DNA of 64,000 bases from Gemmatimonadota bacterium (lineage in GTDB: Bacteria > Gemmatimonadota > Gemmatimonadetes > Palauibacterales > Palauibacteraceae), in NCBI GenBank assembly GCA_958295535.1, contig OY282356.1, forward strand, positions 1,945,614 to 2,009,613, written 5' to 3'. Of the stretch, positions 38,528-58,787 are shown in pieces. The stretch's first letter is position 1, and each line of letters begins with the position of its first letter. The position numbers and the translations under genes are program-made. The notes beneath the pieces were generated by a model that did no database searches, was not told the origin of the DNA, and was given only the letters and a program-made list of their open reading frames with translations.

Positions 38528-41164
38528 TCATCGGCGGAATTCCGCTTCCCAGATATTGCTTGAACCGTCGACAACGAGCACGTACTGGCCGGTTCTGATT
38601 TTGGAGATGTCGTATTCCGGGAGAGGGACGTTCGCCAGACATTCGCCATCGAATCTGTCGCCGTGCCGGTCGAAATGGAAATCCAGGTTGTCGAAGCCGT
38701 TCCGCTTGCGATCGTCGGGGAGGTCCTCCGGGTCGATGGGGATGACGTGTAGAAAAAACATCGCTTCGGTGTCGGCTGGGGCGCACGGTCGCTTAGAGTA
38801 GGTCAGCGTGTTTTCGCGGATATGTATGTCGAAAGTGGAACGGGCCGCAGGCTCGCCTGAAGCCGCCCCCGAAAAATGGCTGTCAAACCACCGCCGTTTC
38901 TCCTCGAACCAGTGCTCCATTTCCCAAAGGAGGTTCCCATCGCGGTCAACCTGTCCGGCCCGGATGCCGAAGAGGTCCTTCGTCGGGAGCTGGCGCTCGG
39001 CGACGCAGGCGCCGTCGTTCTTCCAGAAACTATGGTGCCATTCAAAATCCAGGGTAGCGCGTTCCGGCATTCCACTCTCGGAATCCAACGAATAGACGCT
39101 CAACGGGAACCGCGACCGGTTTTCGTCTTCCCGGATGCAGCTCCGGTTCCTATAGATCAGCCTGTTTCCGTGGAGGTACACATCGTACCCGGAACGAATG
39201 CCGCGGTCCGCTTCGGAAGCGCCCGCCGCTCCCCTTCCGTCTTCGCTTCCAAGCGGCACCAACACTTTCAGGATGTCCGGCTGTACGGGCTCGGACGGCC
39301 TGGTAGTCGCTCCTACTCGGTTGCCGAGCTGGTCTTCGTAGTACACCGAAGCGCGCAGGCGATGCCCGACATCGGCAACCGTGGGGGTGTACACGTGGTT
39401 GGGCCGTTGAACCGGGAGGCTCGCCCAGCCACCCGCATCGCCGCCTTTCTCCCACCGCCACGGGTTCCCTCGCCGCTCTCCGTGGGAGCGGTTGACATAG
39501 ACATAGAACGGCTCCCCCTCCACCGGAGCATCGGAACTGAGGAACATGGCTGGCCGGGACTCCAGCCGGGACTCCAGGGAGTCGCGTTGCAAGCGATACA
39601 GCTTGCCGTCCGCCAGCTCCGCCACCGGCTCCAGCAAGCGCTCCCGAGACAAGGCGCTTCGGAGATCCTCGTCCTGCTGCCGAGAGCATCTTCCCCGCGA
39701 GTCGACGAAATCGAGGACATATGCCTCTCCGCCGTCAAGCGCTTTTGACCATGCGAACGGTAGATGATCCGGTTCGCACGGCAAGCTGTAATGGCGGCGC
39801 AGATTGTCGGCGTACAAAGCCGTGACGGGTCGGACATTGCTCCAGATCGTGCCTGTCAGAGCCGCCTCCCGAATGTACGACACGCTCTCCGAACGCCTCC
39901 ACCGCGGGTCGGCATACATGTCGTGTCGCGCACCGGCATTCCAGAGCGGTATCTCGCGGTAATGCAGCGCAACCAGCCAGGCCGCCTGGAGGACAAGCGC
40001 CAACATACAGGATGGCACGAGAGCCCCCCGCTGGAACTCGACTCGCCGCCGGCGCGGAACGACTCCCCGCGGCGCCCGCCGGCGCACATGCCGGAGGGCG
40101 CCATCCATCAGCAACAGCGCCGCGAACAGGAGCGGAATGTACACCGGAGCGAGATATCTCCACTGCAATCCACTCCAGGTGTTTCCCGACATCATCGCGG
40201 CGACGAGCAGCGTCAGGTACGCGAGCGCAAAACCGCCGAACACGCGCAACGGCCTCCAGGCAACACCCGAAGCAGCGGAAGCACCCATTTTCCGATCCGA
40301 GCGGCGCCAGAACGCATGGCAGGCAGTCATCACGAGCGTCAACAGAACCGGGGCGGTCAACCCGACGAGCCACCAGTCCAAAACCGCGATTCGCAAGACG
40401 TCGGCCACGATGTAGGGAAAGGAGTAGAAAACCCCAGCTACTCTGGAACCGACCGGATATCCGACAAGCAGATAGTTCCGCAGCATCCACAGACCCGTCG
40501 GCGCCGCCGCTATCAGCACATAGACGGCGATACGCTTCATCTTCTCCCGTGGCGCAACCCGCGCCGCAAGCAGCAACGGGACCACCGCCAGGATCGCGGA
40601 AGCGCCCATGTAGCGGGTTAGCCAAGCCAACGCGCTGTACGCCGCCGCCCGGATCAGGGCTGCGCGGCCGCCGCCGCCCAGGTGGGCATCGATCTGCGTC
40701 AGCGAGAGCGTCACGAACAGAATGAATGCCGGCTCGCTCATGGCCTCGGACGCGATCTCGGCGAGCGGAAGGGCCAGCGCGATCGAGAGACAGCCCCACA
40801 GCCACAGGAACCGGGAGTGAAGATGGCCCCGCATCCACCAACCAGCGACCAGAACGGTCAGCCCGAAGATTACGGCGTTGAGCGGCCCGGCGATGGCGTG
40901 GGGGTCGAGCCCGAACAGCCCCCCGCTTGCGAGCATCGCCGGATACAGCGGCGGATAGGTCACCAAAGAGCGACCCAACAAATCGACAAAGCCATCACCC
41001 GCCAGGAGATTGCGGGCCACCGTGATGTAGTTGACGGCATCCCAACCTATGCGTGGTCCGTGGCCCGCCTGCCGCAGGAGCACCAGACCCGCGCCCAGCG
41101 CGGCGGCCGCGACGAGGTGGAGTTGCCCCGGTTTCGTGAACAGTTTAGTGACTTGGGTTTTCAT
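38528..41164 (-). CDS. ArnT/PMT_2-like GT-C membrane glycosyltransferase, paralog 4, with WxW module and two copies (one degenerate) of the shared C-terminal domain
   Basis: Probable start MKTQVTKLF (ATG 41164); the listed ORF extends to 41266. First-loop motif GWDAVNYITVARNLLAGDGFV, then TM helices. The periplasmic region contains NPWRWEKGGDAGGWASLPVQRPNHVYTPTVADVGHRLRASVYYEDQLGNRV. Next is a degenerate CTD (IRSGYDVYLHGNRLIYRNRSC...LDFEWHH...GACVAERQLP...IRAGQ). A canonical terminal CTD follows (ARSTFDIHIRENTLTYSKRPCAPADTEAMFFLHVIPIDPEDLPDDRKRNGFDNLDFHFDRHGDRFDGECLANVPLPEYDISKIRTGQYVL). Confidence 0.7.
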   Translation of the reverse strand: MKTQVTKLFTKPGQLHLVAAAALGAGLVLLRQAGHGPRIGWDAVNYITVARNLLAGDGFVDLLGRSLVTYPPLYPAMLASGGLFGLDPHAIAGPLNAVIFGLTVLVAGWWMRGHLHSRFLWLWGCLSIALALPLAEIASEAMSEPAFILFVTLSLTQIDAHLGGGGRAALIRAAAYSALAWLTRYMGASAILAVVPLLLAARVAPREKMKRIAVYVLIAAAPTGLWMLRNYLLVGYPVGSRVAGVFYSFPYIVADVLRIAVLDWWLVGLTAPVLLTLVMTACHAFWRRSDRKMGASAASGVAWRPLRVFGGFALAYLTLLVAAMMSGNTWSGLQWRYLAPVYIPLLFAALLLMDGALRHVRRRAPRGVVPRRRRVEFQRGALVPSCMLALVLQAAWLVALHYREIPLWNAGARHDMYADPRWRRSESVSYIREAALTGTIWSNVRPVTALYADNLRRHYSLPCEPDHLPFAWSKALDGGEAYVLDFVDSRGRCSRQQDEDLRSALSRERLLEPVAELADGKLYRLQRDSLESRLESRPAMFLSSDAPVEGEPFYVYVNRSHGERRGNPWRWEKGGDAGGWASLPVQRPNHVYTPTVADVGHRLRASVYYEDQLGNRVGATTRPSEPVQPDILKVLVPLGSEDGRGAAGASEADRGIRSGYDVYLHGNRLIYRNRSCIREDENRSRFPLSVYSLDSESGMPERATLDFEWHHSFWKNDGACVAERQLPTKDLFGIRAGQVDRDGNLLWEMEHWFEEKRRWFDSHFSGAASGEPAARSTFDIHIRENTLTYSKRPCAPADTEAMFFLHVIPIDPEDLPDDRKRNGFDNLDFHFDRHGDRFDGECLANVPLPEYDISKIRTGQYVLVVDGSSNIWEAEFRR

Positions 41165-41305
41165 GCGGCTTCGCGGAGGCGAAGGAGGTATATTGGCAGC
41201 CCTGATCGGAGTGGTGGAGGAGCGAGTCCGGGCGGCGTTGCCGAACGGCCATGTCGAGGAAATCAAGCACGAGTTCGGCGCACTGTCGTCTGCGGAGCGG
41301 CTCTA

Positions 41306-42160
41306 TCACGGCGACGGCAGGGTGCGCAAGTATATCCCCTCTCGCACCTGCCGGGACGAATTCTCGACTATCCGACAGCACGCGACAGCCGAAGCGTCCA
41401 GTACCCCCAATGATTCCTCGGAGAGGCGGGGCCTTTCTTGCTCGTCGCCCAGGGGAACGAAGAACGCCTTGTTGACCGCCTCGCTATCCTTGATTCGCTG
41501 CAATAGATGCCTGAAACCAAGCTGGCGCAGAGCAAAGCCGCACCAGTGCCCAAAGGCCGAGAGCCACAAGGACCTGGCGGCAACCGCCTGGTTCGCGGCT
41601 TGTCGCGGGACACGGTCGAACTTCGGCGCTCGGCAGAGGGAAGACAAGACATCCAGCACAGCGCCCGTATCCTTGACAAGAGCAGAAAAAGAGAGCGTCA
41701 GGACATCGACTTGGGGCCGGAACACTTCTGCCAAGCGTTCGGAGGTCAGTCTATCGCGTACAACCGCCGCCTCCAGCCGCCGCGCGCCGAAGAGAGCCGA
41801 TGGCTCTGCCCGGCTTCTGCGGAATTGCATCATCGAAGTTGCGCGGTCCCGGTGGTCTCTGAGAAGCGCCACCAGCAATATTCTGAACCCCTCCTCCCTC
41901 AAGGCTTCCACGCTGCGAGACAACGTGGTATCGGCATAGGCCAAGTTAGCCACGTCGCACAGGACTTGGCCCCTCCCCAGCCGATCCAGCCGTTTCCGCG
42001 CCCGTCTGAACGTTCTTGGAGAGCGGTAGTAGTACCGCTCCTTGATTTCGAGGAAGCAGAAGCTGGGATGGCCTTCCAAAATCCGGTACAGGAATTCGCT
42101 CCCCGACCGCCCAGGCCCCACTACAAGTAGATAATCGTACACGTCCGGACCGCCTTCCAA
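41306..42160 (-). CDS. Sulfotransferase family protein (PAPS-dependent)
   Basis: 284 aa. N-terminal 5'-PSB P-loop-like motif YLLVVGPGRSGSEFLYRIL and later RDHRDRATSMMQFRRS (3'-PB-like). A degraded paralog fragment lies at 58161..58633. Confidence 0.7.
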   Translation of the reverse strand: MEGGPDVYDYLLVVGPGRSGSEFLYRILEGHPSFCFLEIKERYYYRSPRTFRRARKRLDRLGRGQVLCDVANLAYADTTLSRSVEALREEGFRILLVALLRDHRDRATSMMQFRRSRAEPSALFGARRLEAAVVRDRLTSERLAEVFRPQVDVLTLSFSALVKDTGAVLDVLSSLCRAPKFDRVPRQAANQAVAARSLWLSAFGHWCGFALRQLGFRHLLQRIKDSEAVNKAFFVPLGDEQERPRLSEESLGVLDASAVACCRIVENSSRQVREGIYLRTLPSP

Positions 42161-42445
42161 GGCGCTGGTGGACTTGCAGCGTCACCAGATTGTCGTCTGA
42201 TAGCTTCCGCGGTATCGCTGGCTGCCCAGGATTTCGGCGCAGTTCAATAGTGACTGGATCAAGAAGACCAAAGATAGCGAGTATAATGCCAATCTACTAA
42301 TGTCCGCTTCGTCAACCGGCGCCAGGGATGTCGGATTGTCGTCAGTCCGGTGGAATCTGTCGTCGACCAGATAGACGGCGATGAGCGCCCCATGTACGCG
42401 CGCGCGTTCGGCGAGTCCGCGCCGGGCGCGGCACCCGGCCGCTGA

Positions 42446-42568: not shown

Positions 42569-43207
42569 TTGGATGTGTCGCGCGCGGAGCGCCTGCTTGA
42601 CCGGAAAGATAATTCCGTGAGCCACCCTGGAAAAGAAGCTCTATCCTGGCTGCGAAGCCTCGCCAAGCTGCTCGACGAATCGACGTGCCGATACCAGGGA
42701 GACCCCATATCGTTGGACCGTGGTCTGAATGCCCTGCTACAGATCTGGTCGAGACAGATCGTTCGCGACCGTTCAGTTTTCTGGATCGGCAACGGCGGCA
42801 GTGCGGCGCTGGTTTCTCACCTGTCTCAGGATTTGATCAACCAATGCGGCGTCAGATCTCAGACTTTCAACGATCCTTCGCTGATCACGTGCATGTCGAA
42901 CGACTATGGATACGAGCAGGTCTTCAAGCGTCCCCTGCGGGCCCTCGCCCGTGAACGCGATGTCCTGATGGCGGTATCGAGCTCCGGAATGTCGGCGAAC
43001 ATCGTGGATGCCGCTCGAACCGCTCTCGAGATCGGGATGGACTTGGTGACATTCTCGGCATTCTCGGCCGACAACCGCTTGCACAAGCTGCAATCCACAC
43101 TTTCCTTCCATACGCCGACCGATATCTACGGACACGCCGAACTAGCCCATGCAGCGTTGATTCACGCTGCTGTCGACATATGTTCTCGATGGGAAGAGGA
43201 AAGATGA
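42569..43207 (+). CDS. gmhA: D-sedoheptulose-7-phosphate isomerase (SIS domain)
   Basis: SIS-domain phosphoheptose isomerase motifs: SVFWIGNGGSAALVSHLSQDL, VLMAVSSSGMSANIVDAARTALEIGMDLVTFSAF. ATGA overlap with hddA. Confidence 0.85.
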   Translation: MDVSRAERLLDRKDNSVSHPGKEALSWLRSLAKLLDESTCRYQGDPISLDRGLNALLQIWSRQIVRDRSVFWIGNGGSAALVSHLSQDLINQCGVRSQTFNDPSLITCMSNDYGYEQVFKRPLRALARERDVLMAVSSSGMSANIVDAARTALEIGMDLVTFSAFSADNRLHKLQSTLSFHTPTDIYGHAELAHAALIHAAVDICSRWEEER

Positions 43208-44199
43208 TTATCACTCGCACCCCTTATAGAGTCAGCTTGATGGGGGGTGGAACGGATTTCCCGGCTTTTTTTCGCGAACGTGGCGGCTTGGTAATAAATG
43301 CTGCGCTCAACAAGTATTTCTATGTCAGCATGACTCGTCGTTTTGACGACAGCATATGCTTGTCCTACTCCAAGACGGAGACAGTTCGAACTTCGAAAGA
43401 CTTAGAGCATGACATAGTGCGTACGATCCTTGCGCGGTACGATCTTCATTCCAGATTGGAGATCGGAATGGTTGGCGAGATCCCCGGGGGCACCGGCTTG
43501 GGATCCAGCAGCGCCGTCACCGTTGGGTTGCTGCATGCGGTTCGAGTCTCCTTCGGCTTGGAGTGCGGCGCGGATACGCTGGCAAAAGAAGCGGTGATTA
43601 TCGAAACTGAACTGTTGAAAAAACCCATTGGATGGCAAGATCAATACGGTGTAGCTTTCCCCGCATTGAAGAAGATACTGTTCAATCGAGATGATAGCGT
43701 GCGAGTGGAGCCGATAGCGCTGGCGCCCGAGAACCGAACGGCCTTGGAAGCTCACTCCCTGCTCGTGCATACGGGCGGGACGAGAAAAGCGGAGACGGTG
43801 TTGTCGGGCCAGTCATCGAATATGGATGCCAATCAATCCGGGCTCGATGCTATCCGCGGTATTGCCCACGATATGATGACGGCCCTTCAAGGCAGTCCGC
43901 TCGACTTGCAGTTGATCGGATCGATGCTCAGCGAGAGCTGGATGATCAAGCGTACGCTTGCCGCCAACGTCGCCAATCCGGAAATCGATGAACTGTACCA
44001 ATCAGGGATCGCATCGGGAGCGTGGGGCGGGAAACTGCTTGGCGCCGGCGGTTGCGGTTTCATGCTCTTCCTGGTGCCGGCAGAACGGCAGGCGGCCATG
44101 CTCTCACGCATGGGAAACCCGCCGGCATTCCCGTTGGCGCTGGATTCGACCGGCTCGCGGCTCGTATATGAAAGCGGGAGCCGCCGGAGCGGTTTCTGA
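43204..44199 (+). CDS. hddA: D-glycero-D-manno-heptose 7-phosphate kinase (GHMP kinase family)
   Basis: ATG 43204 with GGAAGAGGAAAG upstream. GHMP motifs: PYRVSLMGGGTDFP, EIPGGTGLGSSSAVTVGLL, GAWGGKLLGAGGCGFMLF. It is positioned between gmhA and gmhB, as in GDP-heptose loci. Confidence 0.8.
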   Translation: MIITRTPYRVSLMGGGTDFPAFFRERGGLVINAALNKYFYVSMTRRFDDSICLSYSKTETVRTSKDLEHDIVRTILARYDLHSRLEIGMVGEIPGGTGLGSSSAVTVGLLHAVRVSFGLECGADTLAKEAVIIETELLKKPIGWQDQYGVAFPALKKILFNRDDSVRVEPIALAPENRTALEAHSLLVHTGGTRKAETVLSGQSSNMDANQSGLDAIRGIAHDMMTALQGSPLDLQLIGSMLSESWMIKRTLAANVANPEIDELYQSGIASGAWGGKLLGAGGCGFMLFLVPAERQAAMLSRMGNPPAFPLALDSTGSRLVYESGSRRSGF

Positions 44200-44210
44200 T
44201 ACAGGGCGAT

Positions 44211-44825
44211 ATGACGAGAGCGTTTCGGAAGTCGCGGTGCGCGGTGTTCCTGGACCGGGACGGTACAATTAACCAAGAGGTTCATCATCTTTGTCGACCG
44301 GAGCAACTGCAGTTGTTGCCGGGGGCGTCCGAGGGGCTTCGGAGCCTTCACGAAGCCGGTCACTTGCTGATCGTCGTGACCAATCAGTCTGTGGTCGGGC
44401 GCGGTTGGCTGAACAGAGATCGGCTTGACGAAATTCACCGGCGCCTGAGCGGCATGCTAAATGCCGAAGGAGTGAACATCACTGCCTGGTACGACTGCCC
44501 ACACCATCCGGATGACGGATGTTCGTGCCGCAAACCAGCCATCGGTCTGTTCGAGCGGGGACGTCGAGAGCTCGGGATCTCCCTGGCTCAAGCGTGGATG
44601 GTGGGGGACCGGCTAAGCGATCTGCAAGCCGGTCGCGCGGTTGGTGCACGAACCATTCTGGTCGCAACCGGATATGGGCGCCGGGAGTATCGGCTTCCGC
44701 AGCGTAAAGAGTACGCCGACTACTACGCCGAATCCCTCATAGAGGCCGCTCAAATAATCATGCGACCCGATATCTTGACCGCGGGTCAATGCAAAGGGGC
44801 AGCGGTCTCGGTCGAACCGCCCTGA
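44211..44825 (+). CDS. gmhB: D,D-heptose 1,7-bisphosphate phosphatase (HAD-IIIA)
   Basis: AVFLDRDGTIN (HAD motif I), VVTNQS, and the GmhB Zn-finger-like CPHHPDDGCSCRKP and MVGDRLSDLQAG. Its 3' end overlaps the convergent GT2 gene by 40 nt. Confidence 0.85.
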   Translation: MTRAFRKSRCAVFLDRDGTINQEVHHLCRPEQLQLLPGASEGLRSLHEAGHLLIVVTNQSVVGRGWLNRDRLDEIHRRLSGMLNAEGVNITAWYDCPHHPDDGCSCRKPAIGLFERGRRELGISLAQAWMVGDRLSDLQAGRAVGARTILVATGYGRREYRLPQRKEYADYYAESLIEAAQIIMRPDILTAGQCKGAAVSVEPP

Positions 44826-46861
44826 ACCGGGGTGAAGAAACCGAGTCCCCAGCTCAGGTGCATGGTTACGAGGGCCAGCGGGAGCACGAGCGCGGCGTAC
44901 GAGCGGCGGCGGATGCCGACCGCCAGAGAGCCGAGCAGCAGGACGAGGACATACGCGAGCGGCAGTATCGCTGCCACCCACACCGTGTTGGCCACGGCCA
45001 GGACCGGCGAGACGGACAATGCCAGCAGCAACAGCGGGCTGGCGACATGCCGGGGGAGCAGGGAGACCGGATGTCGTAGCGCCACTACCCGCTTCCACCG
45101 GCCGTAATCGAAATATTGCCGGGCGAGGTCCCGCAAGGTGCCGCGGGGCCGGTAGACGACCACGAGTTGGGGATCGAACCACACCGTTTCCCCGCGCGCC
45201 CGCAGCCGCCAGTTGAGTTCGTAGTCCTGATTTCGAAAGAAGGCGGCGTCGATGCCGCCCACGGCCTCCAGCGCATCGCGCCGGAACGCGCCCAGGAAGA
45301 CGGTGTCGGCGGGACCCTCGGGACCGCCCAGCCGGTAGCGGGCGCCGCCAGCCCCCAGAGGAGTGGTCATCGCCAACCCCACCGCTCGTCCGAAGAACGT
45401 GGTACCGACCGGCTGTTGCCGGCCGCCGACATTGGCCGCACCCGTTCTTTGCAGCGTGCTCACCGCGCGGCGCAGGTATCCGGCCGGCAACACCGTATGG
45501 GCGTCGCACCGCACGATGACCTCTCCGTCCGACACCCGCTGCGCCGCGCGCAATCCGAAGCCGGCGGTCCGTTCCGGATTGGGAACCAGCATCACCGCCG
45601 GATACAGCCGCCGGACCAGATCGGATGTGGCCGACGTGTCGGATCCGTCGGCGACGATCACCTCTACCGAACCCTCGTAGTCCTGAGACAACACCGAATC
45701 GATCGCCCCACCGATGGTCGCCTCGGCGTTCCGAGCCGGGATGAGAACCGACACCCGCGGCAAGGCGCCACCGCCGAGGCGCCGCCCCGGGCGCATCGTC
45801 AGCTCCCTCCTGATCCGCACTGGGGTAAAGAAACCGATTCCCCAACTCAGGTGCATGGTCGCGAGGGCCAGCGGGAGCAGGAGCGCGGCGTACGAACGGC
45901 GACGGATGCCGACCGCCAGAGAGCCGAGCGCCAGGGTGAGCACGTACGCGAGCGGCGCTGCCGCTGCCGCCCAGTAGACGCCGGCCACGGCCAAGACCGT
46001 CGAGGCGGCCAATCCCAACAGCAACAGCGGGCCGGCAAGATGCCGGGGCAGCAGGGATAATCGATGTCGTAGCGCCACTACCCGCTTCCATCGGCCATAA
46101 TTGAAATATTGCCAAGCGAGACCCCGCAAGGTGCTGCGGGGCCGGTAGTCGACCACGAGCTCGGGATCGAACCACACCGTTTCCCCGCGCGCCCGAAGCC
46201 GCCAGTTGAGTTCGTAGTCCTCGCCCCCCCCTAGGGTAGGGTCGACGCCGCCCACCGCCTCCAACGCATCGCGCCGGAACGCGCCCAGGAAGACGGTGTC
46301 GGCGGGCCCCCCGGGACCGCCCATCCGGTAGCGGGCGCCGCCAGCCCCCAGGGGAGTGGTCATCGCTATCGCCACCGCGCGCCCGAAGAACGTGACGCCG
46401 ACCGGCCGTTGCCGGCCGCCGACGTTGGCCGCCCCCGTCCTTTGCAACGTGCTCACCGCGCGACGCAGGTATCCGGCCGGCAACACCGTATGGGCGTCGC
46501 ACCGCACGATGACCTCTCCGTCCGCCGCCCGGTACGCCGCGTGGATTCCGTGCGTGATGACCTGCTCCAGATTGGGAACCAGCGTCACTGTCGGGTACAG
46601 CCGCCGAACCAAGTCGGATGTGGCCGACGTGTCGGATCCGTCGGCGACGATTACCTCTACCGAACCCTCGTAGTCCTGAGACAACACCGAGTCGATCGCC
46701 GCCCCGATGGTCGCCTCGGCGTTCCTAGCCGGGATGAGAACCGACACCGGCGGCAGTCGAGTCGCAACGGCCGGCTGCGGGACGACAATGGAATTCTCCT
46801 TCATGTCCCATGACTGCAATGGTGTCGAACCGGATGCCACCGGCAAGCGTTCAGTTTTCAC
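44786..46861 (-). CDS. Tandem GT2 glycosyltransferase fusion: two complete GT2 + C-terminal TM modules in one 691-aa ORF (module 1 45797..46861 lacks a stop; module 2 starts at ATG 45796 with its own RBS)
   Basis: Module 1 (MKTERLPVASGS...VSVLIPARNAEATIGAAIDSVLSQDYEGSVEVIVADGSD...DAH..., three TM helices, ...HLSWGIGFFTPV) runs without a stop through RIRRELT into module 2 (MRPGRRLGGGALPRVSVLIPARN...HLSWGLGFFTPVQGGSTETAAPLH*). atcAGGAGGGAgctgacgATG lies at the junction. The modules are ~90% identical. A third, frameshifted copy is at 48453..49557. Confidence 0.6.
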   Translation of the reverse strand: MKTERLPVASGSTPLQSWDMKENSIVVPQPAVATRLPPVSVLIPARNAEATIGAAIDSVLSQDYEGSVEVIVADGSDTSATSDLVRRLYPTVTLVPNLEQVITHGIHAAYRAADGEVIVRCDAHTVLPAGYLRRAVSTLQRTGAANVGGRQRPVGVTFFGRAVAIAMTTPLGAGGARYRMGGPGGPADTVFLGAFRRDALEAVGGVDPTLGGGEDYELNWRLRARGETVWFDPELVVDYRPRSTLRGLAWQYFNYGRWKRVVALRHRLSLLPRHLAGPLLLLGLAASTVLAVAGVYWAAAAAPLAYVLTLALGSLAVGIRRRSYAALLLPLALATMHLSWGIGFFTPVRIRRELTMRPGRRLGGGALPRVSVLIPARNAEATIGGAIDSVLSQDYEGSVEVIVADGSDTSATSDLVRRLYPAVMLVPNPERTAGFGLRAAQRVSDGEVIVRCDAHTVLPAGYLRRAVSTLQRTGAANVGGRQQPVGTTFFGRAVGLAMTTPLGAGGARYRLGGPEGPADTVFLGAFRRDALEAVGGIDAAFFRNQDYELNWRLRARGETVWFDPQLVVVYRPRGTLRDLARQYFDYGRWKRVVALRHPVSLLPRHVASPLLLLALSVSPVLAVANTVWVAAILPLAYVLVLLLGSLAVGIRRRSYAALVLPLALVTMHLSWGLGFFTPVQGGSTETAAPLH

Positions 46862-47090
46862 AAGACGCCACGGCCGGCGCGGTTCCCTTTGCCGCCGCCA
46901 AGCAGGACCCTGGAACCAACCGACCGCCGCTCGGTTCGAAGCGGTTCGCCGGAGACACGCACCATTTCAGAGCATGAGGACATTGCATGACTTGAAGAAT
47001 ATCTCACGCGCGTTCGAATATCAATCTATCGCGACAACCGCCCTGTCTCCTCCAGAATGGGATAAGCTGCTACATACGCCTATCTTCGAG
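46862..47090 (-). repeat. ~230-bp non-coding leader upstream of the GT2 genes, duplicated at 49558..49760
   Basis: 46862..47090 and 49558..49760 are about 95% identical and colinear with the downstream GT2 starts. The segment is locally AT-richer (gttgtcgcgatagattgatattcgaacgcgcgtgagatattcttcaagtcatgcaatgtcc on the minus strand) and contains short palindromes (TTCGAA, TCGCGA). Confidence 0.4.
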
Positions 47091-48245
47091 TCATGACCGC
47101 TTGGCCGCCCGCCCGCGCGGAGTCCGTTTCCGGCACAGGCCGCGCAGTTCGGCGGCGACGCGATCGTACCAATCGGCGCTCCGAAAGTGGTCCCCTCGCC
47201 GTCTTGCTCCCTCGCAGAGCCGCCTGTACAACCCAGGATCGTCCAGCAGCCGCTTGATCGCGGACTCGACCTCCGCTGCGGAACGGGGTTCCACCAGCAG
47301 CCCGCTCTTCTCGTGCTCGACCAGTTCGGACACGCCGCCCCACTTGGCGGCGACGACGGGCAGGCCGCACTGGAAGGCTTCGAGGATAGCCCCGGGGTAG
47401 CCCTCGCTCCTGTAGTAGCTGGGATACACCAGCAGGTCGTGTTCGCCGAGGACCCGTGGTATCTCCGCCGGGTCCAGGACGCCGCCGTAGGTCGCCCTGG
47501 GATGGCCCTCGAACAGAGAGAAATCCGTGTCGGACATGCCGGGGCCGAAGACGTTGAGATGACAACTCTCCGGCAGGCGGCGGCACGCCTCGAGGGCTTC
47601 GGCCAGCCCCTTGTCCATGACCAGACGAGCAACGAAAACCAGCTTTTCCACTCTGTCCCGCCCGGTCCGGGCGGGGGCCTCTATCTCCCTCGTGTTCGGG
47701 AACCACTTGAAGTTGTCCCTGTTGTCGAAGCTGCGGTGCAGGTACCGCGTCTCCACGTACACTACCGAAGAACGCATATAGGTCCGGTCGGCCAGCCAGC
47801 GCGCGAACGCGCCATATTCCAGATAATCCGCCATTATGTCGCCCCCCGGGATACGCAGAGCCAGGGGCCTGCGCACGATCTTGCAGACGGCCCACAGGAG
47901 CGATGCCGAGCAGAGCGCCGAAGAGGGCCCGATGATGAGGAACACGATGTCGGAGCGCCATATCTTCCTTGCGGCCCCCCAGGCTACTTTCAGAAACCTC
48001 GCCAAGCGATTGGCCCTGATTTTCCAGGCGGGCAGATTCGTCACGCCCCCCGACGTGTCGATGACGTCCACCTCGAAGCCACGCGCGCCCAATTCCCGCA
48101 CCTGCTCATCGGTCATCACCTTGTTGCCACCGACTACGTTGGTATCGGACGCCCCGGTCTTCTGTATCGGAGCGATGAGCAGGATGCTGGGCGCTCGGCT
48201 CTCGTTCCCGGTCAACGTGTTCCTCCTCTTGCTCGAGTTGAGCAC
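47091..48245 (-). CDS. Glycosyltransferase family 4 (GT-B), paralog of 21244..22323
   Basis: 384 aa. LLVYPSYYRSEGYPGAILEAFQCGLPVVAAKWGGVSELVEHEKSGLLV. It is colinear with 21244..22323 over its full length. Confidence 0.8.
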   Translation of the reverse strand: MLNSSKRRNTLTGNESRAPSILLIAPIQKTGASDTNVVGGNKVMTDEQVRELGARGFEVDVIDTSGGVTNLPAWKIRANRLARFLKVAWGAARKIWRSDIVFLIIGPSSALCSASLLWAVCKIVRRPLALRIPGGDIMADYLEYGAFARWLADRTYMRSSVVYVETRYLHRSFDNRDNFKWFPNTREIEAPARTGRDRVEKLVFVARLVMDKGLAEALEACRRLPESCHLNVFGPGMSDTDFSLFEGHPRATYGGVLDPAEIPRVLGEHDLLVYPSYYRSEGYPGAILEAFQCGLPVVAAKWGGVSELVEHEKSGLLVEPRSAAEVESAIKRLLDDPGLYRRLCEGARRRGDHFRSADWYDRVAAELRGLCRKRTPRGRAAKRS

Positions 48246-48359
48246 GGGCGGCAGCTCTCCCCCTGATCGCGCCGGGCAGCGCGGACCGGCCCGCGGCCCA
48301 CGGGAAGCTCGCGTCGCCGAGCCGCGACAGCCAGACCGCCGACAGACCTTTTAGGAGAA

Positions 48360-48482
48360 GTTGCGAGCGGGGATGTCGAGAGCTTGGGATCTCCCCGGCT
48401 CAAGCATGGATGGTGGGGGACCGGCTAGGCGACCCGATATCTTGACCGCGGGTCAATGCAAAGGGGCAGCGGTCTCGGTCGA
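48360..48482 (+). pseudogene. Remnant of the gmhB 3' end (duplicate of 44560..44830 with internal deletion), carried along with the GT2 duplication
   Basis: gtcgagagcttgggatctccccggctcaagcatggatggtgggggaccggctaggcgacccgatatcttgaccgcgggtcaatgcaaaggggcagcggtctcggtcgaaccgccctgaa matches gmhB 44565..44618 joined to 44760..44825. Confidence 0.6.
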
Positions 48483-49557
48483 ACCGCCCTGAACCGGGGT
48501 GAAGAAACCGATTCCCCAGCTACCGATTCCCCAGCTCAGGTGCATGGTCGCTAGGGCCAGCGGGAGCAGGAGCGCGGCGTACGAACGGCGACGGATGCCG
48601 ACCGCCAGAGAGCCGAGCGCCAGGGTGAGCACGTACGCTAGCGGCACTGCCGCTGCCGCCCAGGAGGCGCCGGCCACGGCCAAGACCGACGAAGCGGCCA
48701 ATCCCAGCAGCAACAGCGGGCTGCCGAGATGCCGGGGCAGCAGGGATAATCGATGTCGTAGCGCCACGACCCGCTTCCATCGGCCGTAATCGAAATATTG
48801 CCAAGCGAGACCCCGCAAAGTATTGCGGGGATGGTAGTCGACCACGAGCTCGGGATCGAACCACACCGTTTCCCCGTTCCCCGCGCGCCCGAAGCCGCCA
48901 GTTGAGTTCGTAGTCCTCGGCTCGCACAAGGGTAGGGTCGACGCCGGCCACCGCCTCCAACGCATCGCGCCGGAACGCGCCCAGGAAGACGGTGCGAGCA
49001 GGCCCCTCCGCGCCGCCCAGCCGGTAGCGGGCGCAGCCGGCCCCCAGGGGAGTGGTCATCGCCATCGCCACCGCGCGCCCGAAGAACGTGACGCCGACCG
49101 GCCGTTGCCGGCCGCCGACGTTCGCCGCCCCCGTCCTTTGCAACGTGCTCACCGCGCGGCGCACGTATCCGGCCGGCAACACCGTATGGGCGTCGCACCG
49201 CACGATGACCTCTCCGTCCGCCGCCCGGTACGCCGCGTGGATTCCGTGCGTGATGACCTGCTCCAGATTGGGAACCAGCGTCACTGTCGGGTACAGCCGC
49301 CGAACCAAGTCGGATGTGGCCGACGTGTCGGATCCGTCGGCGACGATTACCTCTACCGAACCCTCGTAGTCCTGAGACAACACCGAGTCGATCGCCGCCC
49401 CGATGGTCGCCTCGGCGTTCCGAGCCGGGATGAGAACCGACACCGGCGGCAGTCGAGTCGCAGCGGCCGGCTGCGGGACGACAATGGAATTCTCCTTCAT
49501 GTCCCATGACTGCAATGGTGTCGAACCGGACGCCACCGGCAAGCGTTCAGTTTTCAC
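48453..49557 (-). pseudogene. GT2 glycosyltransferase, third copy, frameshifted (split into ORFs 48520..49557 and 48453..48965)
   Basis: The N-terminal 228 aa are ~95% identical to module 1 of 44786..46861. The frame is lost after RLRARGE, and the conserved continuation (TVWFDPELVVDY...GFFTPVQGGSTETAAPLH*) appears in another frame. Small local duplications are present (WGIGSWGIG; ccgattccccagct x2). Confidence 0.65.
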
Positions 49558-49760
49558 AAGACGCCACGGCCGGCGCGGTTCCCTTTGCCGCCGCCAAGCA
49601 GGACCCTGGAACCAACCGACCGACGCTCGGTTCGAAGCGGTTCGCCGGAGACACGCACCATTTCAGAGCGGGAGGACATTGCATGACCTGAGAATATCTC
49701 ACGCGCGTTCGAATATCAATCTATCGTGCCACAACCGCCCTGTCTCCTCCAGAGGCAAGC
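49558..49760 (-). repeat. Second copy of the ~230-bp GT2 leader region
   Basis: See 46862..47090. Confidence 0.4.
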
Positions 49761-50209: not shown

Positions 50210-51367
50210 CTATCTTGGGCGATGGTCACCCGCATTTTGCTGCCGCCGGTTCGTGGAGGTGGCCACCGGCTTCATCCCGTAGCAACTGCGGCAATAGTGC
50301 GGAATGTCGTTGTCGGCAATTCGTCGGCGCAGTTCCCTGTATTTGTCGTTGTTCCAAACATCGGCGAATGGCTCACTAAAAACGTTGCCCATTTTTACGA
50401 CGCTGGAATCGGCTATTTGACAGCAGGGGACGACGTCGCCGTTGGCGGCAATGTAGGAACTCTGCCAAGGCCAGGGACAGCGGTTCGCCCTGGAATACCT
50501 TTGACCATGCTCGACGCTGAGCGGCATCCCGATCTCGGCGGCGACTTCTCTCGACTTCCGGATAGTCCGGTCCACCCGGGCATCTTCCCTGGAAACGTCT
50601 ATCGACGCAATTGACTCCTCCATCTCCTCTTTTCCCCAGTCGGTCAGCAAGGTCGTTATAGTCAATTTGTCCACGCCGAGGCGTTTCGCCAGCCGCACCA
50701 AGTCCGGCAGTTCGTGGGCATTCCGGAGCGTAACGACCGACCGCAGTTCGATCCCGGGCCAGACGCTGCGGCCGCGGCGGCGGACTAGGTCGGCGACATT
50801 GTCGACCACCTTCTGAAAGTTGCCGTTGACCCGGATTGCCTCGAACGTCTCTGCCGTCGCGCCGTCCATGCTGATGATAATCGTCGTTCCCCGCAGGCAG
50901 CTAAGCTGCTTGGCGATATTCTCGGTATAAACCGAACCATTGGTTACGATGGAGATGGCCCTCCCCCCAATCTCTCCCTCTTCCAGCATCTCGATCAGAT
51001 GCCGGTTCAGCAGGGGTTCTCCCATTCCCTGGAGCTTGATCTGACGAAGCATCGGCAACTGACGGAGAATCGAAATGAACCGCTCGGTGGTCAACCGGGT
51101 CGTCTTCCGCGCCCAGTGCGTCACTTGGCAATGGTCGCAGGCAAAGTTGCACGTATCGATCGGCTCGACGTCAACGCTGGTGGGCAGGAAAGGAGTCCTT
51201 TTCAGCCCGAGAAGCTTGGCTGCCCGCCCGCCGACGGTGTGATAGAACTTTCGAGGACTACCCATTCCTGCCCGGCGCCATAGTCGAAAGAGACTTCGGA
51301 AACTATGATTCATTTCCAAGCGAACTCCACATAGCCTGATTTTTTGTCCCCGCCTACCGTCACGCAT
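50210..51367 (-). CDS. Radical SAM protein with C-terminal SPASM-like Cys-rich domain
   Basis: CxxxCxxC motif (IDTCNFACDHCQV), a radical SAM core (LQGMGEPLLN) and a C-terminal Cys cluster (CPWPWQSSYIAANGDVVPCCQ...YCRSCYG). The start is uncertain (MNHSF at 51313 or MGSPRKF at 51265). A 3' fragment copy lies at 58456..58700. Confidence 0.75.
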   Translation of the reverse strand: MRDGRRGQKIRLCGVRLEMNHSFRSLFRLWRRAGMGSPRKFYHTVGGRAAKLLGLKRTPFLPTSVDVEPIDTCNFACDHCQVTHWARKTTRLTTERFISILRQLPMLRQIKLQGMGEPLLNRHLIEMLEEGEIGGRAISIVTNGSVYTENIAKQLSCLRGTTIIISMDGATAETFEAIRVNGNFQKVVDNVADLVRRRGRSVWPGIELRSVVTLRNAHELPDLVRLAKRLGVDKLTITTLLTDWGKEEMEESIASIDVSREDARVDRTIRKSREVAAEIGMPLSVEHGQRYSRANRCPWPWQSSYIAANGDVVPCCQIADSSVVKMGNVFSEPFADVWNNDKYRELRRRIADNDIPHYCRSCYGMKPVATSTNRRQQNAGDHRPR

Positions 51368-51415
51368 CAGTCGGGCCTCTCCGCTTCTGAACGAGGAACG
51401 CCGCCGTGGCGCAGG

Positions 51416-51675
51416 CTAGGCCGATAACGAAATTGTAGGCCCCATGGTGAGCAGATGATTAAACGTCATGCCGTACATGGCCATCACGACAACCCATCCG
51501 ACGACTGAATCTCTGCCCAGTGGCTTCGGCACAGTCCAAAGCAACCGCATCAAGAATAACAGAGACAGCAAGCACAATGCCAATGGAATAATACCCGCTT
51601 CGCCAGCCAGTATCAGGTACACGTTGTGGACTCCAGTCGGTTCCCCCCGGTTTCCGATGGGGGCGCCAACGCCAC
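51416..51675 (-). pseudogene. Fragment of a Wzy_C (O-antigen ligase/polymerase) paralog C-terminus
   Basis: GAPIGNRGEPTGVHNVYLILAGEAGIIPLALCLLSLLFLMRLLWTVPKPLGRDSVVGWVVVMAMYGMTFNHLLTMG is ~85% identical to the C-terminus of 63324..64000. It is fused at ~51675 to the 3' end of the FAD-oxidoreductase pseudogene. Confidence 0.5.
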
Positions 51676-52892
51676 CGCGACGGTCCGAGCAACCTCCCGG
51701 CCCTGCCGGATCGCATAGTTCGTGCCCCGGTCTTCCAGATAGATCTGGGCCATGGTCGCCAGAAACAGGTTCGTCACAGGCATGCGCGTAGGGGGAATCA
51801 GCCGGCGGTAGCCGCGCTCCACGACGGGCTGCGCGTAGCGCGCGCGCCAGACGTGGGCAGCCAGTATCCGGTCGTCCGTCAGGTCGGGAAACATCCGCCG
51901 CAGGTGTTCGAGCGTGAACGCGACCGCTTCCTCGTCCGGCATCCCCCACAGCGCGTCGCTCTCGGGCAGATAGCGGGACAGATACACGATGTGCCGCCCG
52001 GCGTAGGTCGAGGCAGGCTCGAAGTTGGTGTGCTCGATGACTCCCACGAAGGGGAAGCCGGGGTCGTTGACGTTCAGCCAGTAGATGTCCGACAGGCTGC
52101 AGTCGAGCTCGAGCACGACGCACACATTGGCCAGATAGCGGATGCGCCGCAGGCCGTCCACGTAATCGCCCGGCGCGTACCCGCAAGCCCGTGACCGGAG
52201 CTCCGGTGCGGATTTCTCCACCTTGGTCTCGGATGGCCCGGGCCAGCGCGTCGGCGAGGGCTGCGAAGCCGCCGCGGTAATAGGCCAGCCGTTCCCTGCC
52301 GCCTCTGCCGCGGCTGCCGCCCCTGAGCTTGAGCTTGTTCCAGAACCACACCGCCGCCACCTCTTCCGCCAAGTCGCCGAACTTGCCCCGCAGGAGCGGC
52401 GCCCACACCACCCGGTAGACCCGCTCGCCACCCATGTCCCGCAGCCAGTCGGCCGCGGTGCGGTCTTCAAGGCCGCTCCACTCCTTCACCCGGCGCACGC
52501 GCAATGCCAGCAGCCCCAGCCGGATGCGGTCGAAGAACGGAAGGGGCGAGAAGCGCAGGAGGTCGAGGGGCGTCGAGAGCTTGAAGAAGTCGTGGGCGTA
52601 GTACGTGCTGGTCCGGGTAGGACGCAGCACCACCTCGGCCGACCGGCCCAACTCCGCGATGAGATTCATCACATGGACGTCGCTGGTGAACCAGTGGTGG
52701 TAGAACTTCTCGAGCCGCACCGGCGGCGGGAAAGCTGCCGGCGAGGCCGCCGACTTCGGCGTCCCGCTCCAGCACCGTGGCGCGTAGGCCGCGCCGGCCC
52801 AACTCGTAGGCCGCGGCTAGCCCGCAGAAGCCGCCGCCGATCACCGCGACATGGGGCCGGGCAGACGCCGGCCGTCGTGGGCTACTTGTCAA
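51676..52892 (-). pseudogene. FAD/NAD(P)-binding oxidoreductase (amine-oxidase/phytoene-desaturase-like fold), copy A; frameshifted by a 107-bp deletion and 3'-replaced
   Basis: Colinear with the intact copy 54852..56201 (HVAVIGGGFCGLAAAYELGRRG...). It lacks the 107-bp segment present at 55378..55484, which is bounded by a cgcgt direct repeat, and this causes a frameshift (ORFs 51613..52470, 51416..52720 etc.). Its 3' end is joined to the Wzy_C fragment. Confidence 0.6.
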
Positions 52893-54855
52893 AACGAATT
52901 TCCCCTTCCCAGAGGTGTGCGGTGGAGCCGTCCTCGCGGACGAGGAACTGGCCGGTGCGGACGCGGGCGATGGCGTAGTCGGGAAGCTCGCGCAGAGCGA
53001 CGCACCGCTCGGCTGACCGAAACCAACGGCCACCACGGTCGTTGACGCGGAAGTCGAGGTTGTCGAAGCCGTACTGCTTTCTGTGATCAGGAAGGTCGTT
53101 CTCGTCCGCCGGGACAACATGCAGGAAGAAGGTTTCCTGCGCGTCCTCTGCACCGCACGACTCCTTGACATAGATCAACATGTCCTCGGTGAGATGGACA
53201 TCGAAGGTGGAGCGGATTGACGGCTTACGAGTCAAGATTGCCTCCAAATCTCTCACCGCATCAGTAGCGTGACGGTTTATCAAGGCTGCCGCATCTTCAA
53301 TCAGATAGACGTCATGGGGTCCAAACACGACCTGCTCAACCGAAAGCCCGGACATATCCGGTAGCCAGGGACCGACAAACCAGATTCTTCCGTCCACGAT
53401 GCCGGACCAGTGGGCCAAATCAGCCATCTCGCGGAGACACGACTTGGAGGAGCGCCAGCACCAACCGGAGTTTCCATAGTGGTAATTGGCCGGTCTTTCT
53501 TCATTTCCTCGATAGAACCGCATGGCCGGGACCGCCCCCCAGTCTGCGTAGACCATGTCCTCTTCCCGCACCCGTTCTTTCAGTACGGCGAGAACGGATT
53601 CGATGTTTACGGCAAGAGCGGGATCGATGTTTTCACGTGTCTGGTACGGACTGTCCTGCCGCATGGCGCCCACCCCGGCAAGCACCATCGCGCCGGCCAT
53701 CGCAACGAGCAAGGCCGGCGTCGTCCACCCCCGGCGCGTGAGCGAGGACAAACGACCGGCGGTCCAATGAAACGCCAAGCCGACCGCCAGGAAGACAATC
53801 GGACCCAGATAGATGGTCTGGCGAATGCCCCCAAGCGGATATATTCGCAGCACGGCAGCACCGACCAGAACTGCAAGGGAAAGCGAAAATAAAACTGCGA
53901 TGGCACCGTCAATGGGGTTTCCTCGAAACTTTCCGAGGAGTGCTGTGGCGAGGAGGATCGCGAATGCGGCAAGCGCCGCTATCGCAACGACATCCGGCAA
54001 ATGATACGTCAATAGACTCCAGATCCCGTCAATCGAAAACTCGAAGACCTCGAGGATCGAGTGCGGGTAGAATTTTCCCTGATAGTAATACGGTCGCAGA
54101 TAGCCGGTCGGGGCGAAGTCCGGTGCACCCAACTGATAGCGCGCAGTCATCAAGTAGCTTGTGGCACCTCCCGCCAGAAAGCACGCCGCTGGCGCGAGCA
54201 GGGCGATGCGCTGCCTGAGCCAATGAGGAATCCGGCTCAGGTACGAGTTCCATTCCGATGCCCCTAAAGTCGGGGGGGGGGGCAGAACCACAGCGGCGCC
54301 AATGACGGCGACGCCGAACAGAACCAAGCCGTACTGGAGCAAGGGCGCGAGGAACAGCGCAACGCAGAGCAGGGCCTTCCGGCCGTGCCGCAGATACCAC
54401 AGCAGTCCCGCTATCATCAGCGTGGCCAGCAGCGCGTCGATGGAGTATTCGCGCGCATCCTGGGCGTGATATATCGCGGCAACCGAAAGAGTCGCCAGCA
54501 GCGCCGCCAGAAACGCGGCCCACCGGCTCGCTCCGGCGCGGGGAAGCAGAAAGAGCAGGGCCGCCACGGTCAGAACGCTGGCCGCCGCCGGCAGAACGCG
54601 GATGCTGAAGGCGGATACATCCACTTTCTGCACCGCCCACAGCGCCAGAGGGTACAGTATAGGCGAGGAGTTCCCGTAGCGGGTATTGGGGACTACTTCC
54701 GAGAGAGCGCCACTCGAATTATTGGCCGCTGCCGCTTCGTCATGCCGTAGAGACTTCTCCGGCAGGTCATGGAAGCGCAGCCCTGCCGCGGCGACAAGCA
54801 GGCAAACACAGGCCGCGTAGAACAGATGCGTTTTGCGGTCCCAGCTGAATGTCAT
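52882..54855 (-). CDS. ArnT/PMT_2-like GT-C membrane glycosyltransferase, paralog A, with shared C-terminal domain; contains a C11 homopolymer
   Basis: ATG 54855 (MTFSWDRKTHLFYAACVCLLVAAAGLRFHDL...); the listed 943-aa ORF adds an out-of-frame overlap with the upstream gene. First-loop motif LRHDEAAAANNS (ArnT-like DE), ~12 TM helices. CTD: SIRSTFDVHLTEDMLIYVKESCGAEDAQETFFLHVVPADENDLPDHRKQYGFDNLDFRVNDRGGRWFRSAERCVALRELPDYAIARVRTGQF. About 85-90% identical to paralog B. Confidence 0.75.
   Translation of the reverse strand: MTFSWDRKTHLFYAACVCLLVAAAGLRFHDLPEKSLRHDEAAAANNSSGALSEVVPNTRYGNSSPILYPLALWAVQKVDVSAFSIRVLPAAASVLTVAALLFLLPRAGASRWAAFLAALLATLSVAAIYHAQDAREYSIDALLATLMIAGLLWYLRHGRKALLCVALFLAPLLQYGLVLFGVAVIGAAVVLPPPPTLGASEWNSYLSRIPHWLRQRIALLAPAACFLAGGATSYLMTARYQLGAPDFAPTGYLRPYYYQGKFYPHSILEVFEFSIDGIWSLLTYHLPDVVAIAALAAFAILLATALLGKFRGNPIDGAIAVLFSLSLAVLVGAAVLRIYPLGGIRQTIYLGPIVFLAVGLAFHWTAGRLSSLTRRGWTTPALLVAMAGAMVLAGVGAMRQDSPYQTRENIDPALAVNIESVLAVLKERVREEDMVYADWGAVPAMRFYRGNEERPANYHYGNSGWCWRSSKSCLREMADLAHWSGIVDGRIWFVGPWLPDMSGLSVEQVVFGPHDVYLIEDAAALINRHATDAVRDLEAILTRKPSIRSTFDVHLTEDMLIYVKESCGAEDAQETFFLHVVPADENDLPDHRKQYGFDNLDFRVNDRGGRWFRSAERCVALRELPDYAIARVRTGQFLVREDGSTAHLWEGEIRFDK
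54272..54282 (-). repeat. Homopolymeric tract G11 (C11 on the coding strand) inside GT-C paralog A, encoding Pro-Pro-Pro-Pro
   Basis: cccctaaagtcGGGGGGGGGGGcagaacc on the plus strand; on the coding strand gtt ctg ccc ccc ccc ccg act tta gives VLPPPPTLG. Paralog B has no tract at the equivalent position (..LVAPRVSGQARW..). Confidence 0.9.
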
Positions 54856-58173: not shown

Positions 58174-58633
58174 CGGGCCTCCCCCGCGGCGTCCGGCCGG
58201 ATCGCTCCGAAGACGGCGGCATTCAACGGCCCGGCGACACGCAAAACAGCCGAAGCGTCCAGTATCTTCAAGGATTGCTCAGAGACGCGGGGGCCCTTGT
58301 GCATTGTCGGCCAAGGGAACGAAGAACGCTTTGTTGGCCACCTTGTCCTCCTTGATTCGCTGTAACAGACGCCTGAAGCCAAGATGGCGCAGAGCAAAAG
58401 CCGCACCAGTGCCCAAAGGCCGAGAGCCACAAAGACCTGGCACCCACCGCCAAGTTCACGGCTCGTCGCGGCGTGCGGTCGAACTTCGGCGCTCCGCAGA
58501 GGGAAGGCAAGATTGCGGCCGCGGGTCCGTGGAGGCGGCTACCCGCTTCATCCCGTAGCAACCGCGGCAATAGTGCGGAATGTCGCCGCTGGCAATTCGC
58601 CGACGCAGCTCCCGGTATTTGTCGTTGTTCCAA
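58161..58633 (-). pseudogene. Degraded sulfotransferase paralog fragment
   Basis: LCGAPKFDRTPRRAVNLAVGARSLWLSAFGHWCGF and SEQSLKILDASAV match the C-terminal region of 41306..42160 (LCRAPKFDRVPRQAANQAVAARSLWLSAFGHWCGF; SEESLGVLDASAV). There is no N-terminal PAPS-binding part and the frame is broken. Confidence 0.5.
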
Positions 58634-58700: not shown

Positions 58701-58787
58701 AATGGTCTTCCTGGCGGTAGAGAAAAATATGTCTATCGCGGTCGCGACGGAAACGGACGATGCGTCGGGCTATGGCGCGCGCATCCC

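Follow-up and report, generated by a model that had tools for sequence, protein, structure and literature searches.

A double GT2 glycosyltransferase gene with halves apparently homogenized by intragenic gene conversion around two protected active-site islands

PcManGT (Pcal_0472, PDB 6YV7-9), a membrane mannosyltransferase of glycosyltransferase family 2 (GT2) from Pyrobaculum calidifontis with a 'minimal cellulose-synthase-like' fold, is a single-module enzyme. Two GT-A domains per chain, each with its own active site, are known from K4CP/KfoC of Escherichia coli K4 (PDB 2Z86/2Z87) and from PmHS2 of Pasteurella (8VH7). Here, a gene encoding two fused PcManGT-like modules was analyzed in a 64,000-nucleotide (nt) stretch of a Gemmatimonadota genome (GenBank assembly GCA_958295535.1, contig OY282356.1, positions 1,945,614 to 2,009,613; hereafter, the window). 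Each of its modules resembles PcManGT over both the GT-A and the helical domain, at an identity of only about 25%, and the chain likewise carries two GT-A domains. The gene probably encodes one conserved double protein in which the halves have been homogenized by gene conversion, two islands have been protected from it, and two sugars would be added in succession.

The minus-strand open reading frame (ORF) 44786..46861 encodes 691 amino acids (aa) with no internal stop. Pfam profile searches matched it in two stretches with PF00535 (131 bits, cut-off 23.3) and likewise in two stretches with PF13641 (99.8 bits), and three direct-repeat families in the region were spaced by exactly 993 bp, with the modules in frame. 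The ORF, the paired profile stretches and the 993-bp period agree with the first-pass annotation of this DNA, which had described two GT2 modules with helices joined without a stop. Look-ups by exact sequence gave no hit for the 691-aa ORF, for its 672-aa form, or for the neighboring hddA-like protein. Module 1 (aa 20-344 of the 691-aa ORF; 45830..46804, minus strand) and module 2 (aa 367-691; 44786..45763, minus strand) each comprise a GT-A domain, an interface helix and three helices. Segments 46755-45822 and 45762-44829 were 87% identical by BLASTN. The identity of about 90% once given for all modules does not describe them well: modules 1 and 2 are 87% identical in nucleotides and 82% in amino acids, and module 1 and a third, separate copy, M3 (48453..49557, minus strand), are 95% and 93% identical, respectively. 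The mechanical ORF reaches GTG 46861, and the true start is likely ATG 46804 (MKENS..., coding sequence 44786..46804, 672 aa), since the relatives begin with MKE and one of them (locus L001) has an in-frame TGA TAA just upstream.

Judged by their motifs, both modules appear to be catalytically intact. Each scored above the curated profile threshold for GT2 and contains a D-x-D-type metal/diphosphate motif together with an aligned catalytic-base Asp; the former is CDAH, at residues 121-124 and 452-455, which pairs with the TDAD of PcManGT in the alignment. The motifs DGSD, CDAH, (E/Q)D-Y-E-L, Q..RWK, and HLSWGxGFF were invariant or near-invariant in both halves. The best NCBIfam match, the mycofactocin glycosyltransferase MftF (TIGR03965), reached 90.3 bits, below its curated cut-off of 280.

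The relationship between the halves was analyzed in the orthologues, which are related to one another, so that the counts are not independent. In most of them, the two halves of one protein were 87-96% identical, and the same-position halves of other proteins were about 70-87% identical to those of the window. An alignment of 74 modules was partitioned into 25 island columns and 271 remaining columns. In the islands, the nearest neighbor lay at the orthologous position for 74/74 modules, and the amino acid distance was 0.515 within a protein, compared to 0.226 among first modules (d1-d1) and 0.174 among second modules (d2-d2). In the rest of the alignment, the distance within a protein was 0.102, compared to 0.153 (d1-d1), 0.154 (d2-d2), and 0.157 (d1-d2) between proteins; with 0.153 and 0.154 so close to 0.157, there is almost no positional signal outside the islands. 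Synonymous divergence (dS) between the modules, estimated by NG86 in 11 genomes, was 0.51 in the islands and 0.11 elsewhere.

The same pattern was observed in individual nucleotide alignments. Two 45-nt island bins held 24 of the 31 differences between the modules of locus L003 and 31 of the 40 in L010, with a similar concentration in L007, and identical runs of 165-270 nt were present in these three loci (permutation P <= 0.005). In the module pair of the window, difference peaks of 17 and 16 fell in the islands (permutation P = 0.0175). Together, the likeness within each protein and the protected islands indicate, at the level of sequence comparison, intragenic gene conversion under selection.

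Island a comprises aa 96-112 of module 1 (PNLEQVITHGIHAAY..., 46526..46576, minus strand), at the nucleotide pocket, and its position-specific counterpart, aa 427-443 of module 2 (PNPERTAGFGLRAAQ..., 45533..45583, minus strand), with the patterns PEQ-VIT-x-GIHAA and PEQ-TAGFGLRAA, respectively. Island b comprises aa 208-215 of module 1 (PTLGGGED, 46217..46240, minus strand), the loop directly before the catalytic Asp215, and aa 539-546 of module 2 (AAFFRNQD, 45224..45247, minus strand), a family-typical RNQD loop before Asp546. The loops LGGGED and FFRNQD of the two modules, the loop LVRAED of M3, and the G8 tract in the module 1 loop (46224-46231) were all read in the sequence as had been reported. 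That report had recognized one divergent loop; there are two islands, and the helix region is an additional part in which modules 1 and 2 diverge.

The loops were surveyed in the window protein and 36 orthologues (n = 37). Module 1 carried LGGAED in 22 proteins, LGGGED in 10, LVRAED in 4, and LMGAED in 1, and module 2 carried FVRNQD in 31 and one-residue variants of it in the remainder. Leu or Phe at 210/541 and Glu or Gln at 214/545 distinguished the two module positions in 36-37 of the 37. In the wider family, single-module proteins and GT4-GT2 fusions among them, L[VI]RNQDYEL predominates, which makes the loop of module 2 the one retained from the family pattern and that of module 1 a derived form. 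The proposal that the loop is hypervariable and under diversification is contradicted by its conservation at each position over the 37 orthologues and by an orthologous ratio of nonsynonymous to synonymous divergence (dN/dS) of 0.41-0.61 in the islands, which speaks for purifying and not diversifying selection. Module 2 of L002 has the loop FGGGED, of the module 1 type, and that of L003 has the hybrid LVRNED, a pattern suggesting that conversion tracts sometimes overwrite island b.

Both islands are placed at the active site by HMMER alignments to PcManGT and WrtF. Asp215 and Asp546, the D of (E/Q)D, align with the "DD" of PcManGT, which includes the catalytic base Asp223 (PMC12595478), and the earlier suggestion that the loop could determine specificity gains from its position immediately before this residue. 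The Glu of PNPE[RQ] and the next two residues fall on Asp66, Gly68, and Ile69 of WrtF, which contact guanine (PMC12595478), and the same Glu aligns with the matching GDP-mannose-binding region of PcManGT. Two position-specific islands at these sites are consistent with different donor specificities of the two modules.

The fusion was traced in a homologue search over 5.8 billion proteins. Clusters with lengths of 661-705 aa numbered at least 36; they covered 95-100% of the query at 73-83% identity, and their contigs reached 6 Mb. The matches also included more remote doubles, with 55-65% identity. A locus scan with one genome per species gave ten close loci (L001-L010) in complete chromosomes of metagenome-assembled genomes (MAGs), and in 10/10 the modules were in frame, 105-129 nt apart, and joined by a homologous linker. 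With the same fusion in ten loci and at least 36 clusters, the idea of a bifunctional-type double GT2 protein stands, and the fusion appears older than the clade of the window. An exhaustive family search of 1.84 billion representatives (50% clustering, E <= 0.001) found 25,101 family members; two modules are present in 21 of the best 150, and the halves of these are 35-88% identical. Judged by these matches, the tandem architecture is common in this GT2 family, at about one in seven of the best-matching representatives. The literature searched, with incomplete coverage, yielded no account of PcManGT-like GT2 proteins in tandem or of conversion inside a GT2 gene.

A separate clade of 741-763-aa doubles (P0042-P0050), from metagenome contigs of 7-19 kb, has halves that are 99-100% identical, and the proteins differ from one another by 1-7%. 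Their duplication unit takes in the N-terminal extension, and the form with a single module is represented by P0120. The near-identity of these halves reflects either very active homogenization or an assembly effect. The clade appears to represent a separate, simple duplication, which suggests that independent in-frame tandem duplications occur in this family.

The fold and topology of the protein were predicted with AlphaFold2 from a 41-sequence alignment (mean pLDDT 81.8, pTM 0.60). Module 1 was predicted to consist of the GT-A domain, an interface helix at 245-265, and helices at 272-292, 296-321, and 324-344, followed by a disordered linker at 345-369; the same set was predicted in module 2. 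Helix 3 is the least hydrophobic and is flanked in module 1 by RRRS and RIRRELTMRPGRR, positive on both sides, and the residues after HLSWGxGFF are positively charged throughout the family, single-module members included. Because of these charges and the weak hydrophobicity of the helix, the C-terminal end of helix 3 is probably cytoplasmic.

In the history proposed here, a single fusion would have predated the clade of the window. Episodic intragenic gene conversion would then have wiped out the divergence between the halves, and selection would have kept island a (the nucleotide pocket) and island b (the loop before the catalytic Asp) distinct. The modules would thereby have become near-copies with two different active-site specificities. 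Several points weigh against this interpretation. The modules of the window are among the less homogenized pairs, with 116 differences and a difference of 0.106 at 4-fold sites, and those of L005 and L009 are little homogenized, hence the description of conversion as episodic. Assembly polishing could inflate the similarity between repeats, and tandem duplications like those of clade P0042-P0050 may explain part of the within-protein similarity elsewhere. If the three helices after module 1 all spanned the membrane, module 2 would lie outside the cell, a concern that is lessened but not removed; at a pTM of only 0.60, the predicted placement of the modules relative to each other and of helix 3, which may be spanning or interfacial, is tentative. 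The donor, the acceptor, and the presence of two different specificities are deduced from sequence position.

The similarity of the halves could also have arisen by a recent tandem duplication in each lineage, that is, by recurrent birth of the fusion, with the islands produced by fast divergence or acquired from other paralogues. The distribution of doubles in the family is scattered and their half-to-half identity is 35-76%, those of P0042-P0050 have nearly identical halves and a different duplication unit, and the linker of the double genes in L012 and L013 is longer than and unrelated to that of the window. However, all 37 orthologues of the window's clade share one linker and one succession of loop types, LGG[A/G]ED ahead of FVRNQD, dS is 0.51 in the islands and 0.11 elsewhere, and the non-island sites lack the positional signal (0.153 compared to 0.157). 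One fusion followed by repeated conversion is simpler than at least 30 identical independent events, and recurrent duplication is regarded as an unlikely origin of this clade.

The joint between the modules reads ATCAGGAGGGAGCTGACGATG, in the context ...GGTTTCTTTACCCCAGTGCGGATCAGGAGGGAGCTGACGATGCGC..., with an ATG at 45796-45794, and about 58 nt of it fall outside the repeat. It encodes an Arg-rich linker (aa 345-366, FTPVRIRRELTMRPGRRLGGGA; 45764..45829, minus strand), disordered in the model and homologous to TPVRTKRELTAHPRHF... of the relatives; these have GFFTPVRTKRELT[A/V]HPR...ALPSVSV where the window has GFFTPVRIRRELTMRPGRR...ALPRVSV. The linker is an old, conserved feature of the clade, and its conservation is at odds with the view that module 1 had lost its own terminus in a local accident. 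The textbook ribosome-binding site and start described at the joint are present as a Shine-Dalgarno (SD)-like motif with an in-frame ATG, Met352 (GGAGGGAGCTGACGATG, 45794..45810, minus strand); a functional role for them did not hold up. The Met352 codon aligns with GCG, GTA, or GTG (Ala or Val) in the relatives, which also have AAGAGG (Lys-Arg codons) in place of AGGAGG, and the window contains GGAGG-N4-10-ATG 16 times, compared to 16.9 expected from shuffled sequences. Given this lack of conservation and the chance frequency, the motif appears to be a fortuitous, lineage-specific coincidence inside a conserved coding linker. An origin of the linker in the 5' part of an ancestral second gene, suggested by an AAGGAG after the start that resembles the linker AGGAGG, was rejected, as the alignment scores equaled those of shuffled controls (z -1.4 to 0.7).

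If the internal SD motif and ATG were used, a separate module 2 of about 36 kDa would be made, and slippage at the G8 tract could switch module 1 off and yield a phase-variable glycan. The SD motif is good, its spacing to the in-frame ATG is good, the tract is one of only five runs of at least seven G in 64 kb, and it is kept as G7 (GGG GGG GCC) in 8/10 relatives. Both parts of this scheme are nevertheless improbable: the start codon is not conserved in a motif of chance frequency, and the G run, always in frame as G8 in the window and G7 in those relatives, codes for a conserved Gly-Gly. The sole homologue with a frameshift exactly at the tract, P0054, was discarded as a case of phase variation, as it is riddled with further errors in and out of frame that point to a poor assembly.

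The genes around the double GT2 gene bear on its possible function. A gmhB-like heptose bisphosphate phosphatase gene (44211..44825, plus strand) is convergent with it and overlaps it, such that the module 2 tail QGGSTETAAPLH shares 40 nt with the gmhB 3' end. Upstream of the gmhB-like gene lies a gmhA-like gene (42569-43207), with an hddA-like gene (43180-44199) between the two, and the gmhA-like and hddA-like genes are linked to the double gene in L002, L003, L006, and L007 as well. A GT4 glycosyltransferase gene (47091..48245, minus strand) is located between M3 and the double gene; the order GT4-then-GT2 occurs as one fused protein in other lineages, and fusions to Bac_transf or GT4 domains occur in some members of the family. 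Two Wzx-type genes, one Wzy_C gene, and several GT4 genes are present in the window. This context supports lipid-linked assembly with subsequent flipping and polymerization, in which the enzyme would add two different sugars successively to a polyprenyl-(di)phosphate-linked glycan at the cytoplasmic face in a Wzx/Wzy-type pathway. GDP-sugars are plausible donors, for example, GDP-heptose from the adjacent gmhA/hddA/gmhB genes, because Asp66 of WrtF, which reads guanine, is matched in the alignment by the Glu of PNPE[RQ] and the heptose-pathway genes are adjacent.

The three helices of PcManGT reportedly match half of the BcsA channel. The double protein, with two such helix triplets side by side and nearly identical modules that differ only in the two active-site islands, might accordingly be imagined as a self-contained minimal synthase that adds two different sugars alternately and threads the co-polymer through its own six-helix channel, a quite improbable scheme; the Wzx and Wzy_C genes of the window point to a flippase/polymerase pathway rather than to a processive synthase. 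A more modest version, more likely than the synthase, would treat conversion as a natural swap experiment in which stretches of 8-17 residues set donor or acceptor specificity in a GT2 fold.

Decay of the fused gene to a non-functional duplicate comparable to M3 is very doubtful. Segmental duplications and gene fragments abound in the region, and both M3 and the third module of L009 are frameshifted; against this, the double ORF is intact, all catalytic motifs are retained in both modules, dN/dS is about 0.4, and the architecture is conserved in many genomes. A hidden stop or frameshift that would turn the locus into two genes, as the first-pass annotation had considered, was excluded as far as comparative data allow by the in-frame, homologous linker in the ten loci and at least 36 protein clusters, and neither the window nor the ten relatives have an in-frame stop at the end of module 1. 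That two adjacent genes were merely joined by a sequencing or assembly error is extremely unlikely, in spite of an AGGAGG 9 nt ahead of an in-frame ATG and a +1 frame that reads AGC TGA CG ATG at the junction, for the ten chromosome-level loci are independent, their ATG is replaced by GCG, GTA, or GTG, CTGAC merely represents Leu-Thr codons present in the relatives too, and the SD-ATG motif occurs at chance frequency.

M3 is a single-module pseudogene of the LVRAED type and a mosaic, first module 1-like and then with a module 2-like tail. It is frameshifted, and so split into two ORFs, by a 7-bp tandem duplication (CGGGGAA x2, 48870..48883, minus strand), and a 15-bp in-frame tandem duplication of AGCTGGGGAATCGGT (SWGIG x2; 48507..48536, minus strand) lies at the switch from module 1-like to module 2-like sequence. 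By BLASTN, 49753-48522 matched 47056-45833, the leader included, at 95%, and the tail 48429-48521 matched 44762-44854, the end of module 2 with the overlapping gmhB end, at 99%. M3 and module 1 showed 4 differences over the leader and the first ~400 nt, and the next ~400 nt were ~10% diverged. Next to M3 is a passenger remnant of the gmhB 3' end (48360..48492, plus strand) with a 141-bp internal deletion relative to 44549-44825; its second piece, 48360-48432, matched 44549-44620 at 92%, with the 141 bp missing between the pieces. M3 was therefore copied from a position adjacent to gmhB. Its previously noted duplication together with the gmhB tail and a leader, and its frameshift, were borne out by the gmhB remnant, the leader copy, and the 7-bp duplication; the leader copy measures ~195 nt and not the 230 bp given. 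The LVRAED loop was also found in module 1 of four orthologues and in an apparently intact single-module gene of L041 with the same ...STET...SH tail. M3 is best read from these comparisons as an inactivated paralogue of the third loop type and as a partner of the double gene in sequence exchange. In L009, a separate single module (12121-13201) directly follows the double gene; it has the conserved leader and an LVRAED loop and is frameshifted in the helix region.

The 5' region of the double gene (46805..47056, minus strand) contains a promoter-like site, TTGATA-17-TATTCT at 47024-46996, and was copied upstream of M3. In the copy (49558..49753, minus strand; 95% identical to 46862-47056), the site is repeated at 49719-49691. 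About 170 nt of leader are conserved upstream of GT2 genes, at 46862-47056 and 49558-49753 of the window and in L001, L006, and L009, and fold into a predicted long hairpin (GGTCGGTTGGTTCC...GGGAACCGCGCCGGCC). No Rfam match was obtained for the leader or elsewhere in the window, and essentially no covariation was detected in the hairpin among the five sequences, which leaves a claim of an RNA element unsupported.

The entire glycan island of the window is rich in pseudogenes and duplications. The 291-bp gmhA/hddA junction at 42939-43229 is copied at 61003-61293, 18 kb away, with 98.6% identity, a further passenger fragment comparable to the gmhB remnant. A 3-kb tandem duplication (14792-17795 and 17790-20813, 95%) involves two sulfatase-like (PF00884) proteins at 14947-16449 and 17773-19473. 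Nested segmental repeats pair 51666-52983 with 58912-60229 (97%), 52167-54849 with 55474-58128 (90%), and 51345-51667 with 63310-63632 (87%); in this region (51345-63632), the sole intact amine-oxidase ORF is 54852-56480, and 51613-52470 and 58898-59677 are fragment-like. A UbiA prenyltransferase gene (34532-36103), an FAD_binding_4 gene (33130-34422), and a short-chain dehydrogenase gene (30099-30845) lie together and resemble the UbiA/DprE1/DprE2 set for decaprenyl-phospho-arabinose; adjoining this trio, three large membrane proteins gave no Pfam match (30842-33133, 36033-37931, and 38528-41266). The longest G/C run of the window is the G11 at 54272-54282, and runs of at least 7 are otherwise rarer than in shuffled sequence (10 compared to 22.4 expected).

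Many glycan cassettes of the window, such as 38580-42223, 42600-44272, and 47045-48348, recur in shuffled order in L001-L010 at 82-90% nucleotide identity. The MAG record titles of these loci name Gammaproteobacteria, Pseudomonadales, Nitrospirales, Vicinamibacterales, and Candidatus Entotheonella, and the shared cassettes reflect either cross-phylum exchange or unreliable labels. Judging by their names, the listed lineages look like symbionts of marine sponges or corals.

Among two-domain glycosyltransferases, K4CP and PmHS2 were the top Foldseek matches for the whole chain (E 1e-17), with TM-scores of 0.26-0.31 and identities of 12-13%. In those enzymes, no membrane helices separate the domains, which are ancient and far diverged, whereas three hydrophobic helices lie between the domains here and the modules are 82-96% identical. 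Because of these intervening helices and the lack of a meaningful sequence relationship, the double GT2 protein resembles the K4CP class in logic and is not a member of it, and polymerase activity is not implied. Compared to BcsA (PDB 4P00) and the Chlorella virus hyaluronan synthase, it has no canonically spaced QxxRW, no PilZ or accessory domains, and far fewer helices. Glycosyltransferase specificity is hard to read from sequence, and the islands offer testable candidates for the residues behind donor and acceptor choice in GT2 enzymes of the PcManGT-like type. Two short active-site segments hold, in some genomes, about three quarters of the nucleotide differences that separate the halves, and the orthologues provide dozens of natural near-identical enzyme pairs, which suggests a route to re-engineering such enzymes. 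What had seemed an annotation problem, a missing stop and an internal ribosome-binding site, is a conserved architecture.

Concerted evolution is known in tandem gene arrays and in the repeated domains of modular synthases, where selected segments escape homogenization. The double GT2 gene shows the same likeness of repeats within a genome and the same mosaic identity. It differs in that the repeats are the catalytic halves of one glycosyltransferase and the escaping islands are 8-17 codons at the active site, and it would represent a clean bacterial case of concerted evolution inside a single enzyme gene.

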